In this document: in pieces, positions 35,092 through 37,456 of the stretch | Layout: the number at the start of each line of letters is the position of its first letter | Numbering within the stretch: position 1 is the first letter of the stretch | Sequence record: PV340561 | Reading direction: 5' to 3' (one strand) | DNA length: 64,000 nucleotides | Origin: Escherichia phage PhiR41_1 | The notes under the pieces: model-generated | What the model saw: the letters and a program-made list of their open reading frames with translations, nothing else | The model's database searches: none | What the model was told of the DNA's origin: nothing | Translations under genes and position numbers: made by a program

Positions 35092-36885
35092 ATGTGGTAC
35101 AGGGAAGGTACAATAAATCTCACTAAAGGAAATAAAACTGTAGTGGGAACAGGCACAGCCTGGGGAGTGACGACGAACGGCGTCCTTCCAGGTATGATAT
35201 TGATTGGCCCCGATAATAAGTTATATGAAATAAAATCAATCGAGAGTGACACTTCGTTAACTCTTGTTGAAGCCTACGGTGGCAGCACCCAAACAAATGT
35301 TCCGTGCAGAATAATTACGACCTATGAAGGTGATTTGACCCAATTTAGTGCTCGTTTTACTGCGCTTATGTCTCGCATGTCAGCCGATTCAAAAATGATG
35401 CGTAGTTGGCTGACTGCTGTGGATAAAATAACAATTGAGCGTGAAGATGGCACGGAATTAACCGTAAAATCCCTTACGCAGATCGTTAATGAGCACAATG
35501 AGAACCTAGAATGGTATAAAGAAAATACTCCCATAATTAACACCGCTGCACAAAAAGCTAAAGAGGCGGCAGCGAGCGCAACAGCGGCCAAAAAATCAGA
35601 AACTAACTCAAAAGCGAGTGAGACAGCTTCAAAGACCAGCGAAACTAATGCGAAAAATAGCGAGGTAGCTGCAAAATCGAGTCAGAGTGCTGCCGCCAAC
35701 TCCGCTACCGCAGCAAAAAACAGCCAGGCGGCGGCAGCCGAAAGCGAGAGTGCCGCAGCTGGTTCTGCGACTTCAGCTGCCGGATCAGCAACTGCCGCGG
35801 CTAACAGCCAGAAAGCTGCGAAGACGAGTGAAACTAACGCAAAGTCCAGCCAGACGGCAGCGAAGACCAGCGAAACGAATGCCAAAGCCAGTGAAACTGC
35901 GGCGAAAAACAGTCAGGATGCAGCAGCCCAAAGCGAGAGTGCCGCAGCCGGTTCTGCAAGCGCGGCGGCTGCTTCTGCCACTGCATCAGCCAACAGTCAA
36001 AAAGCAGCAAAAACCAGTGAAGCCAACGCAAAGGTGAGCGAAACAGCGGCGGCGAACTCGGCGAAAGCATCGGCAGCAAGCCAGACGGCAGCAAAAGCAA
36101 GTGAAGATGCTGCCAGAGAATACGCAAACCAGACAGCAGAGCCGTACAGATATGTTTTACAGCCGCTGCCGGATGTGTGGATACCCTTTAATGATTCGCT
36201 GGATATGATTACGGGCTATTCTCCGGGTTATAAAAAAGTGAAGATTGGTGATAATGTGGTTCAGGTTGCCAGTGATAAACAGGTTAATTTCAGTCGCGCA
36301 TCAACGGCAACATATATCAACAAATCTGGCGAACTGAAAACGGCGGAAATTAATGAGCCACGATTTGAAAAAGAAGGTTTATTGATTGAAGGTCAGCGAA
36401 CCAACTACATGTTGAATTCAGCAACTCCAGCTTCTTGGGGTAAATCTGCAAATATGAATGTCGCTGAGGTTGGAACTGATAGTTTTGGTTTTACTTATGG
36501 AAAGTTTGTTTGTAATGAATCATTAATTGGGCAAAGTACAACCCTTAATATGGCAGTAGTTTCAACCTCGGGGGCTGTCGATGTATCAGGCGATAATAAG
36601 TGTGTGACGACATCGTGCAGATTTAAAACGGATTTGGAACTCCTGTTAAGGATCAGGTTTGAAGCCTTCGATGGCAGCGCTTCATCTAATCTTGGATATG
36701 CCATTGTTAATACGCGGTCTTTATTGGTTGAAATCACCGGTGTAGCTGCCGACAGGCTCACCGCACGAGTTAACAAAGATGAAGCTACGGGCTGGATTTT
36801 TGTAGAGGCAACGATTCAAGCAAGTAAAGAAACTTACATAACCTCTGCAATACAATACGCACCAAAAAAAAGGTGGTGTCGTTGA
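35092..36885 (+). CDS. side tail fibre protein, N-terminal part (frame ends shortly after A8 tract)
   Basis: Ala/Ser/Thr-rich tail-fibre-type repeats (SETNAKxSxxAAKxS); stop 14 nt after poly-A tract. Confidence 0.7.
   Translation: MWYREGTINLTKGNKTVVGTGTAWGVTTNGVLPGMILIGPDNKLYEIKSIESDTSLTLVEAYGGSTQTNVPCRIITTYEGDLTQFSARFTALMSRMSADSKMMRSWLTAVDKITIEREDGTELTVKSLTQIVNEHNENLEWYKENTPIINTAAQKAKEAAASATAAKKSETNSKASETASKTSETNAKNSEVAAKSSQSAAANSATAAKNSQAAAAESESAAAGSATSAAGSATAAANSQKAAKTSETNAKSSQTAAKTSETNAKASETAAKNSQDAAAQSESAAAGSASAAAASATASANSQKAAKTSEANAKVSETAAANSAKASAASQTAAKASEDAAREYANQTAEPYRYVLQPLPDVWIPFNDSLDMITGYSPGYKKVKIGDNVVQVASDKQVNFSRASTATYINKSGELKTAEINEPRFEKEGLLIEGQRTNYMLNSATPASWGKSANMNVAEVGTDSFGFTYGKFVCNESLIGQSTTLNMAVVSTSGAVDVSGDNKCVTTSCRFKTDLELLLRIRFEAFDGSASSNLGYAIVNTRSLLVEITGVAADRLTARVNKDEATGWIFVEATIQASKETYITSAIQYAPKKRWCR
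35560..36110 (+). repeat. tandem tail-fibre-type repeats (SETNAK / AAKTSE units)
   Basis: seen in translation; explains several spurious overlapping ORFs in both strands. Confidence 0.6.
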
Positions 36886-37456
36886 ATCTGGTGACTATAT
36901 TTATCTGGCCACCCCTCAGGTTGAGGATGGTTCGTGTGTATCATCTTTTATTATATCAGGAACGACGGCGGCGACGCGCGCAAGCGATATGGTTACAGTT
37001 CCGATTAAGAATAATCTTTATAATCTTCCTTTTACGGTTCTTTGTGAGGTACATAAGAACTGGTATAAAACGCCAAATGCAGCGCCGCGTGTTTTTGATA
37101 CCGGCGGTCATCAAACCGGAGCGGGGATCGTAATGGGGTTTGGTTCATCAGGTGGGTACGACGGTTTTCCGTATTGCGATATAGGTGGTTCAGACCGACG
37201 AATAAATGAAAATGCCGGGCTGGAAAAAATGCTTATTGGTATGCGGGTAAAGTCCGAACGGTCCACATGTGTAGTCAGTAACGGTAAGTTAAGCAGCGAA
37301 ACTAAAACCAAATGGGAATATATCCGGAGTACAGCAACCATTCGCATTGGTGGACAAACTACAGCAGGATTACGCCATTTATTTGGGCATGTGAGGAATT
37401 TTCGTCTCTGGCATAAAGAGCTAACAGATGCGCAGCTTGGGGAGGTTGTGGAGTGA
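36842..37456 (+). CDS. tail fibre C-terminal segment in +1 frame (no independent start needed)
   Basis: frame 2 open across the A8 tract; protein-like translation GDYIYLATPQVEDGS... continuing into ORF-track 36989-37456. Confidence 0.45.
   Translation, partial: PLQYNTHQKKGGVVESGDYIYLATPQVEDGSCVSSFIISGTTAATRASDMVTVPIKNNLYNLPFTVLCEVHKNWYKTPNAAPRVFDTGGHQTGAGIVMGFGSSGGYDGFPYCDIGGSDRRINENAGLEKMLIGMRVKSERSTCVVSNGKLSSETKTKWEYIRSTATIRIGGQTTAGLRHLFGHVRNFRLWHKELTDAQLGEVVE
36864..36871 (+). repeat. A8 homopolymer tract at tail fibre frame junction
   Basis: 8 consecutive A; frame 1 stops at 36883-36885 while frame 2 is open from 36842 to 37456. Confidence 0.8.

Follow-up and report, generated by a model that had tools for sequence, protein, structure and literature searches.

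A side tail fibre gene split by a single additional adenine in an SSU5-like phage-plasmid

Genetic context of the fibre gene

The 64,000-nt stretch of DNA analysed here (the window) is an SSU5-like phage-plasmid. Its fibre gene, which starts at 35092, lies directly 3' of an ORF for a J-like protein on the same strand, the position by which side tail fibre genes of this family are recognised (Table 1). The region of the J-like ORF aligns with the "tail host specificity protein J" of phage Cyrano and also with CMS-2020a, its homologue in the L059 assembly carries the Pfam families Phage-tail_3 and Phage_Tail_Tip, and the order of J-like gene and fibre gene is likewise found in Cyrano, S88, PhiR40_1 and L059.

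The gene itself is a mosaic. The N-terminal third of the fibre is an SSU5-type anchor, 98% identical to that of E. marmotae phage-plasmids, and the distal two thirds of the gene belong, together with two small downstream ORFs, to the recombinational module listed in Table 1. The GTG start of the first small ORF (92 aa) overlaps the fibre stop as GTGA, an arrangement that is also annotated in S88, IAI39, PhiR40_1, ev243 and L059; the second (94 aa) travels with the fibre module and is found in relatives. A Pfam scan of both ORFs gave no significant family, and the window encodes no second fibre, just these two ORFs.

Table 1. Features of the side tail fibre locus (positions in the window)
Feature	Position	Strand	Remarks
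J-like tail tip / host specificity gene	30385..34998	+	directly upstream of the fibre gene
Side/lateral tail fibre gene, 5' part	35092..36885	+	frame 1, 597 codons
Recombinational module common to lambdoid prophage stf loci	36007..37982	+	96.6% identity to E. coli S88 prophage
A8 homopolymer	36864..36871	+	A7 in close relatives (CCA AAA AAA GGT = PKKG)
Fibre gene, 3' part	36872..37456	+	frame 2, 194 codons and stop
Premature stop TGA	36883..36885	+	product of the frameshift; 14 nt past the A8
ORF of 155 aa from the first in-frame start of frame 2	36989..37456	+	probably no independent gene
Conserved ORF, 92 aa	37453..37731	+	phrog_1361, E 7e-41
Conserved hydrophobic ORF, 94 aa	37741..38025	+	phrog_1443, E 1.5e-54

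Reading frames at the A tract

Across the run of eight A, frame 1 reads CCA AAA AAA AGG TGG TGT CGT TGA. The protein encoded by the 5' part ends in ...APKKRWCR*, with codons 594-597 (RWCR) out of frame and the premature TGA next to them, and the C-terminal peptide predicted for the truncated fibre is ...QYAPKKRWCR. In frame 2, a TAA (36839-36841) is followed by an open stretch that begins at 36842 and ends with the TGA at 37454-37456; from the GGT at 36872 onwards it encodes 194 aa. When one A is removed from the tract, the two frames become a single ORF of 787 aa, the product of which would span the tract with the predicted junction peptide ...QYAPKKGGVVESGDY... / ...IQYAPKKGGVVESGDYIYLATPQVEDGSCVSSFIISGTTAATR and the wild-type junction PKKGG. 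A preliminary description of the locus, made from the letters and the ORFs, had proposed that one side tail fibre gene is split at the A8, with the tract and the stop at these positions, a +1 frame open over 36842-37456 and fusion of the frames on loss of one A, and our reading of the frames agrees with it on all these points.

Comparison with related fibre genes

The L059 and L060 assemblies also contain this mosaic gene, in about 99% identical form, with an A7 tract and an intact 787-aa ORF, and the window differs from these intact alleles by only 16-18 codons plus one A. Over residues 1-593, the product of its 5' part shares 99% identity with P0122 and P0121, intact proteins of 787 aa, and its 3' frame has 96-99% DNA identity to the corresponding end of intact fibre genes; because of this identity, the open +1 frame is not a product of chance. 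S88, IAI39 and PhiR40_1 have annotated intact CDSs across the site, and in the alignment of the S88 prophage with the module the A tract is the sole single-base gap.

An A8 was found in none of 104 complete E. coli genomes (135 places), none of 18 IMG/VR contigs and none of 29 metagenome contigs. The E. coli genome records have A7 in 92 cases and AAAATCT in 12, the latter inferred from the identity score. Over all relatives, about 141 with identical flanks have A7 and 13 more have AAAATCT (12 of the 13 inferred from the identity score), and no tract of A6, A8 or A9 occurs at the consensus level among the about 141 sequences. Every relative thus has seven bases at the site, in frame, so the split lacks conservation and the relatives show no variation in tract length; the continuous frame is what the preliminary description had suggested looking for in homologous fibre genes. 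The junction pattern gave no match in the genome-contig collection, which holds one genome per species. Further broken genes of this family exist, with breaks at other runs.

We also considered an artefact at a recombination junction, as ev243-type homology resumes at 36886, and rejected it, since the S88-type and L059/L060 alleles are collinear with the window across the site and differ from it there by one A only. As the gene is intact in every relative, we conclude from the sequence that this is a single side tail fibre gene whose frame was shifted by an ordinary mutation or appears shifted through a sequencing miscall.

Domain architecture and position of the break

The frame-corrected 787-aa protein aligns through residues 2-786 with positions 16-793 of the 793 positions of the phrog_1419 profile, a family of siphophage side/lateral tail fibre proteins (1129.9 bits), and the ORF as encoded covers this family with residues 1-593 only. 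Residues 431-630 match NCBIfam NF048003, a head-spike-fibre-like beta-sandwich (E 4.7e-13, 50.1 bits, cutoff 36 bits), and residues 401-645 align with the head spike fibre of RcGTA (PDB 6TB9_F3, E 5e-6); the beta-sandwich of NF048003 is complete only once the frame is corrected. Pfam gave no match at E <= 0.1 for the frame-corrected protein, the lambda-type N-terminal anchor PF08400 included; lambdoid homologues of the fibre have both PF08400 and PF13620.

For structure prediction we used as a proxy the protein P0039, which is 96% identical to the query. AlphaFold reached a pLDDT of 40 with a shallow alignment and of 53 with a more diverse one, the latter model being confident only for the first beta-sandwich (P0039 residues 56-220); this confident part runs across the frameshift junction, and the terminal domain came out uninformative. 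Foldseek searches against the PDB returned weak matches only (best, the tandem LNS/laminin-G domains of neurexin, TM about 0.22), no more than a hint that the terminal domain may have a LamG/galectin-like fold. NF048003, 6TB9_F3 and the AlphaFold model agree that the frameshift breaks a beta-sandwich domain and not a domain boundary, so that about 37-52 residues of that domain are encoded past the shift.

The 3' part supplies the final strands of the beta-sandwich as well as the terminal galectin/LamG-like domain, inside which lies a hypervariable patch (at about 37100-37299) that presumably contacts the receptor. The preliminary description had seen a distal fibre domain in the +1 frame: this frame does hold the 3' part of the fibre, but what it encodes is not self-contained, as the break falls inside the beta-sandwich. 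The junction "GGxxxSGDYIYLATPQVE..." and the terminal domain belong to a fibre module that is exchanged widely and that occurs in lambdoid, T5-like, Seuratvirus, Dhillonvirus and rV5-like phages, stands under tail-fibre annotations in 204 phage records and, in the representative library, is located at the extreme C-terminus of long fibre proteins.

This architecture also bears on the proposal that two functional proteins are made, a 597-aa fibre shaft and an independently translated distal protein, which we regard as highly improbable. There is indeed a 155-aa ORF with an ATG at 36989, and this module makes up most of a few short database proteins (154-250 aa), but these entries resemble contig-end fragments or other broken genes, and the first start codon of frame 2 lies only 39 codons into the module and is preceded by 18 nt (gcgacgcgcgcaagcgat) that contain no Shine-Dalgarno-like sequence. 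Moreover, the split runs through the beta-sandwich domain, the module in long proteins is always the C-terminal end of a single polypeptide, and the two-gene arrangement is present in no relative. Reinitiation at the Shine-Dalgarno-like AAGGTGG (36870-36876) was rejected because the GTG and TTG codons close to it are out of frame.

Origin of the additional base

We favour, with a probability of roughly 55%, a real and recent slippage mutation from A7 to A8 that inactivated the side fibre, with infection through J possibly persisting. The ancestral A7 would have gained one A (CCA AAA AAA GGT to CCA AAA AAA AGG T), most likely by slipped-strand mispairing at replication in this lineage. Ribosomes would then read the four wrong codons and halt at the premature TGA. 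The resulting 597-aa product would lack its last 194 residues, that is the closing strands of the beta-sandwich and the whole terminal galectin/LamG-like domain, and for this reason the side fibre is expected to be non-functional or missing from virions; it is from this domain architecture that we infer the loss of fibre function. By analogy with lambda PaPa, infection could persist through the J central fibre, by which the phage would probably stay viable, and the A8 allele could revert through loss of one A. The insertion is, relative to the A7 alleles of L059 and L060, a single-base indel in a homonucleotide run, of the type known from lambda PaPa. Given that the downstream frame is intact and nearly identical to functional alleles, the event appears recent and non-programmed: the 193 downstream codons contain neither a nonsense codon nor a further frameshift, although an artefact would look alike.

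Such an artefact is a possible but tentative explanation: the DNA would in truth carry A7 and an intact fibre gene, and the eighth A would be a base-calling error at a homopolymer, such as a residual error in an assembly of the long-read or pyrosequencing type. It would account for a sequence that is off by exactly one base from intact alleles otherwise about 99% identical, at a homopolymer that ranks among the five longest in the window, with a downstream frame free of any sign of decay, an A8 seen in no other database sequence and ORFs of 597 and 155 aa whose exact products are not on record. An error-prone platform would, however, normally leave several such breaks, and the A tract is the sole uncompensated single-base indel in coding sequence in the alignments with two relatives, CMS-2020a (26 kb, 98.5% identity) and L059 (22 kb, 98.3% identity). 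The other 28 homopolymers of at least 7 bases break no long ORF. Runs of at least 8 A or T are rarer in the window than expected (5 sites with 6 matches, against 13.6 +/- 5.5 in shuffles) and only two of them are coding, the tract in the fibre gene and an A8 at 6259-6266 which leaves its ORF intact and has the same length in 44 plasmids. Judged by its sequence, the assembly gives no impression of frequent homopolymer errors, and we infer that the mutation is real rather than a miscall.

Recoding and phase variation

Of the three causes offered by the preliminary description, two agree with these observations, namely a sequencing indel and a recent inactivating mutation; the third, a slippage-prone tract with phase-variable or low-level expression, finds no support as an evolved feature because no relative has an A8 or any other length variant. 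In its functional form, this third explanation supposes that a fraction of the fibre made from the A8 allele is still full-length and has the wild-type PKKGG junction, either because RNA polymerase slips on A8 and leaves A7 in the mRNA, or because tRNA-Lys shifts by +1 on AAA-A with the rare AGG in the A site, or both; fibres would then be sub-stoichiometric or, with DNA slippage, subject to a reversible ON/OFF switch of host range. We consider it improbable. The geometry of the site would suit a +1 shift, since the P-site AAA could re-pair as AAA in the +1 frame, AGG is the rarest Arg codon in the genes of the window (37 of 12,802 codons, 2.9 per 1000), and the +1 codon is GGU, in parallel with the CUU-AGG-C of Ty1 (PMC5009743). 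Precedents also exist: slippage on A8 is documented in some systems, with 9 as the usual threshold (PMC1088944), an interrupted gene (tssM, A11) is rescued by poly-A slippage (PMC4256274), and "savior" indels with low-level frameshifting are known (PMC5009743).

Against this stands a complete lack of conservation, as the A8 or another length variant occurs in none of about 150 related sequences. RNA folding of both flanks found no stimulatory structure (z = +0.25 downstream and -0.79 upstream), and the sequence upstream of the shift site, CAATACGCACC, contains no Shine-Dalgarno-like motif. A tRNA scan found no tRNA gene within the 64,000-nt window, and hence no phage-borne tRNA-Arg(CCU). The tract also falls short of the length, typically at least 9 A or T in bacteria, at which programmed slippage is expected (threshold from PMC1088944, where productive A8 tracts in a few organisms are noted), and the ORF is continuous in all relatives, L059 and L060 included; a programmed +1 shift would call for a stimulator and a conserved site, and the site is absent from all relatives. 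Nor is there, at the consensus level, the polymorphism in tract length of a phase-variable contingency locus. Any leakiness would be incidental rather than evolved.

Under our preferred slippage mutation, the inactivation may nevertheless be incomplete, since the A8 and the rare AGG could permit some full-length product. That a real A8 is non-null, with a few percent of full-length fibre recovered by RNA polymerase slippage and/or a +1 ribosomal shift and with DNA that switches between A7 and A8 at high frequency, seems very unlikely; if true, it would give a mixture of fibre-rich, fibre-poor and fibre-less particles, a form of bet-hedging of adsorption rate and host range.

Comparison with known systems

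The closest parallel is the stf gene of lambda PaPa (orf-401/orf-314, compared with Ur-lambda), where, in the passage of PMC12617516 that cites Hendrix & Duda (1992), a frameshift abolishes the side fibres while plaque formation is kept. There too a single-base frameshift splits the side fibre gene after J and the intact ancestral allele is known from relatives. Lambda PaPa itself is described in that passage as having lost its side fibres and remaining infective via the J central fibre, whereas our case is known as a DNA record. It differs further in that the host element is an SSU5-like phage-plasmid, the anchor is not PF08400 and the indel is an insertion in A7. Selected lambda stf mutants carry frameshifts in 15 of 19 cases, nearly all in short homonucleotide runs (PMC2762979); Gallet, Shao & Wang (2009) attributed the recurrent indel hot spots in the distal part of stf to replication slippage, and loss of stf can be favoured because low adsorption helps in structured environments (PMC2762979). 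The indel described here likewise lies in a short homopolymer of a side fibre gene, but those were laboratory selections with measured adsorption and this is one natural or database allele.

Citrobacter rodentium tssM1 (A11; PMC4256274), Thermus dnaX (A9) and IS elements (PMC1088944) also have a poly-A tract just before a premature stop and a C-terminal domain in another frame. Their tracts, however, are of at least 9 nt and conserved, and both products have been shown to be made and needed, whereas here an A8 is found in one sequence only. With the CUU-AGG-C of yeast Ty1 the site would share a rare AGG in the A site, a re-pairing P-site tRNA and a +1 Gly codon (PMC5009743); unlike the CUU-UGA of E. 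coli prfB (PMC5009743) it has no upstream Shine-Dalgarno stimulator and no conservation, and the likeness is one of sequence geometry only.

For the intact fibre, a relevant comparison is the proximal lateral fibre of the Tequintavirus IrisVonRoten (Bas32), which has a C-terminal galectin-like domain (bioRxiv 10.1101/2024.09.12.612763). A 796-aa lateral fibre protein of this phage (P0401, Gp22 or Gp23) shares about 60% identity with the last 399 residues of our fibre, and this identity indicates that a shaft followed by a terminal beta-sandwich is common to both proteins. In IrisVonRoten a second, T-shaped distal fibre attaches, for which the window has no counterpart.

Conclusions

For annotation, the pair of ORFs should be entered as a single side tail fibre gene with a frameshift, either a pseudogene or a record to be corrected, rather than as two genes or a recoding site. 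The observations point to no new mechanism. Should the mutation be real, particles would be without functional side fibres and adsorption would be narrower or slower, and, by analogy with lambda PaPa, horizontal spread of the phage-plasmid could be limited.

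The element and its mosaic fibre gene

Over window positions 13000-35000, PhiR41_1 shares 98.3% identity with Escherichia phage CMS-2020a, 93% with phage Cyrano and 80% with Salmonella phage SSU5, and these identities indicate that it is an SSU5-like phage-plasmid. Its gene order is terminase, portal, capsid, tail, tape measure, M/L/K/I, J-like tip and fibre, followed by two small ORFs, the holin, endolysin and spanin genes, and then ParA and replication genes. The J-like protein has a long array of coiled-coil-like repeats of about 36 aa (...DISAAI..E...RA.AD.ALS.QI..L..K...; about aa 830-1400) between conserved tip domains. 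The second ORF of a tail assembly chaperone-like pair, 5' of the tape measure gene, lies in the -1 frame relative to the first, the layout expected of a G/GT-type programmed -1 frameshift; no slippery heptamer could be confidently recognised there. A further ORF, on the minus strand, spans the 3' end of the fibre gene together with both small ORFs. It overlaps plus-strand genes that are conserved and is probably mechanical.

Features of the fibre gene region and of other genes discussed in the text
Feature	Position	Strand	Remarks
Chaperone-like pair	22607-23274		105-aa ORF 22607..22924; 89-aa ORF 23005..23274
A8 run in a second gene	6259-6266		within intact 266-aa ORF 5813..6613
J-like tail tip gene	30385-34998		1537 aa
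Fibre ORF	35092-36885	+	597 aa, ending ...APKKRWCR, stop
A8 homopolymer	36864-36871	+	inside fibre gene
92-aa ORF (phrog_1361), start	37453-37456		conserved; GTG overlaps normal fibre stop as GTGA
Antisense ORF	37111-37905	-	264 aa, ATG start

The fibre gene (35092-37982 region) is a recombinational mosaic. Over its 5' 879 nt it shares 98% identity with SSU5-like phage-plasmids of E. marmotae, whereas 36007-37982, which holds the distal two thirds of the gene together with the 92-aa and 94-aa ORFs, shares 96.6% identity with the stf loci of lambdoid prophages, for example the one in E. coli S88. Fifty of the 64 mismatches to S88 fall in 37100-37299, along with a 3-nt indel; this marks a hypervariable patch within the terminal domain of the fibre, compatible with loops that contact the receptor and undergo diversifying exchange. 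Since homology to ev243-type and many other plasmid and phage fibres restarts at about 36886, 15 nt beyond the A tract, the conserved ...ESGDYIYLATPQVEDG... segment looks like a recurrent recombination boundary for terminal-module swapping.

A one-base insertion relative to related genes

The codons across the A8 run are CCA AAA AAA AGG TGG TGT CGT TGA, with the stop 14 nt past the run, and the +1 frame, closed by a TAA at 36839-36841, has no further stop between 36842 and the TGA at 37454-37456. The coordinates of this split, first put forward in the preliminary description, were all confirmed in the sequence, and its suggestion that loss of one A would fuse the frames was borne out: the deletion gives a 787-codon ORF with the junction ...APKKGGVVESGDY....

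Homologous fibre genes, to which that description had pointed for comparison, have a continuous frame in relatives, being annotated as intact single CDSs of 686-790 aa in PhiR40_1, ev243, HannyBb, VogelGryff, S88, IAI39 and two phage-plasmids. The tract site is CCA AAA AAA GGT GGT (A7) in S88 and IAI39 and CCA AAA TCT GGT GGC in PhiR40_1. Using an 80-nt query centred on the tract, we found matches at 135 places in 104 records among 5,426 complete E. coli genomes; none of these records carries A8 and no match reaches 99%. Most (92/104) lie in the 95-99% identity band, as expected for a one-base gap of A7, and the other 12 at 93.8%, the value expected for AAAATCT, the type here being read from the identity score. 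With a gapped pattern permitting 5-11 bases between the flanks, all 18 matching IMG/VR contigs and all 29 matching metagenome contigs have AAAAAAA; the junction pattern gave no match in a one-genome-per-species collection. The same mosaic gene occurs intact (P0122, 787 aa) on a 108,091-bp metagenome scaffold, L059, a complete SSU5-like element, and as a partial copy (P0121) in E. coli assembly GCA_042837165.1; both are A7, with 18 codon differences from the frame-corrected gene in the former and 16 in the latter. Because these relatives, near-identical alleles included, lack A8, the tract contains one inserted base relative to every known relative.

We weight a real mutation (probability about 0.55) somewhat above a homopolymer miscall, which we consider the lesser but still substantial prospect. 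The tract is one of the five longest runs in the window and the downstream frame is pristine, as a miscall would have it. Against a generally error-prone assembly, no other uncompensated single-base indel falls in coding sequence across the alignments to CMS-2020a (26 kb) and L059 (22 kb), the remaining gaps being intergenic, compensated pairs or multiples of three, and none of the other 28 homopolymers of at least 7 bases interrupts a long ORF. A/T runs of at least 8 occur at 5 sites, fewer than the 13.6 +/- 5.5 expected from shuffled sequence, and only two are coding. The second of these, also an A8, is stable: ungapped 951-nt alignments indicate an equal length in 44 related plasmids.

Content of the downstream frame

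The downstream frame is neither a separate domain nor a separate gene. The distal fibre domain proposed for it is real distal fibre sequence, as the frame-corrected protein matches the tail-protein family PHROG 1419 end to end, but it is not self-contained. NCBIfam NF048003 (phage head spike fibre domain) covers residues 431-630; chain F3 of 6TB9, the head spike fibre structure solved for the Rhodobacter capsulatus gene transfer agent, aligns to residues 401-645, taking in the conserved GD..YL...PQ.E.G...SS.I.T....TRA.D motif C-terminal to the junction at residue 593/594; and the sole confident region (pLDDT 55-87) of a second AlphaFold model has a strand at 602-606. All three cross the junction, and the frameshift therefore deprives the protein of its whole terminal domain and of the strands that close one beta-sandwich. 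In a library of 1.8 billion representatives, this terminal 194-aa module occupies the very C-terminal end of long proteins (400-1500 aa), and in 204 phage records from many genera it falls within tail-fibre annotations. The homologue in IrisVonRoten shows 60% identity, and the proximal lateral fibre of that phage has been described with a C-terminal galectin-like domain (bioRxiv 10.1101/2024.09.12.612763), with which weak, unreliable Foldseek matches to tandem laminin-G domains agree. Not until the ATG at 36989, 39 codons into the module, does the downstream frame offer a start codon, and this ATG lacks a Shine-Dalgarno sequence.

Programmed or phase-variable expression

Programmed or phase-variable expression as an evolved feature is not supported. 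The preliminary description had offered a slippage-prone, phase-variable tract; the split arrangement is not conserved among relatives, about 150 of which show no variation in the length of the tract, A8 falls short of the 9 nt that is the usual threshold for bacterial transcriptional slippage (PMC1088944), folding found no flanking RNA structure, and no tRNA genes were found in the window. Such recoding or phase variation is accordingly disfavoured, and what stands of that description is one gene split by an inserted base. Incidental leakiness is conceivable, as in AAA-AGG-U a re-pairable tRNA-Lys adjoins the rarest Arg codon (AGG, 2.9 per 1000), resembling the Ty1 CUU-AGG-C site (PMC5009743) in sequence geometry only; either transcriptional slippage or a +1 ribosomal shift would recreate the wild-type PKKGG junction.

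Consequences for the phage

If the insertion is a real mutation, slipped-strand mispairing in A7 would have added one A and translation would stop at 36885, leaving a truncated fibre expected to fail in assembly or binding because it has lost the beta-sandwich closure and the terminal lectin-like domain. The overlap of the normal fibre stop with the 92-aa ORF, which has a GGGGAGG Shine-Dalgarno sequence 5' of its start, suggests translational coupling, which termination 570 nt upstream would break.

Other split copies were seen. Plasmid pMY504-2 of E. coli MY504 (NZ_AP026904.1; L058 position 3068) has a same-family stf gene that a G4 to G3 deletion, by comparison with phage ev243, has broken into two frames; no CDS is entered at this place in the PLSDB gene table. 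P0263, a 113-aa fibre fragment from the representative library, is in the wrong frame after ...FDTYRHQADAG (DRNGVWFIRWVRRFSVL), which indicates another frameshifted copy of the terminal module, at a position matching window ~37120-37130, beside a G-run.

Because the J-like central fibre gene is intact, particles may still be infective. The situation proposed resembles that of lambda PaPa, in which the central J fibre suffices: PMC12617516, citing Hendrix & Duda 1992, states that the stf frameshift abolishes side fibres and does not reduce plaque titre. Among spontaneous loss-of-function mutations of stf, frameshifts in short homonucleotide runs predominate, and they are open to selection (PMC2762979). 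The split gene is an ordinary case: a side tail fibre gene of a familiar type that carries a frameshift, or possibly a sequencing error.
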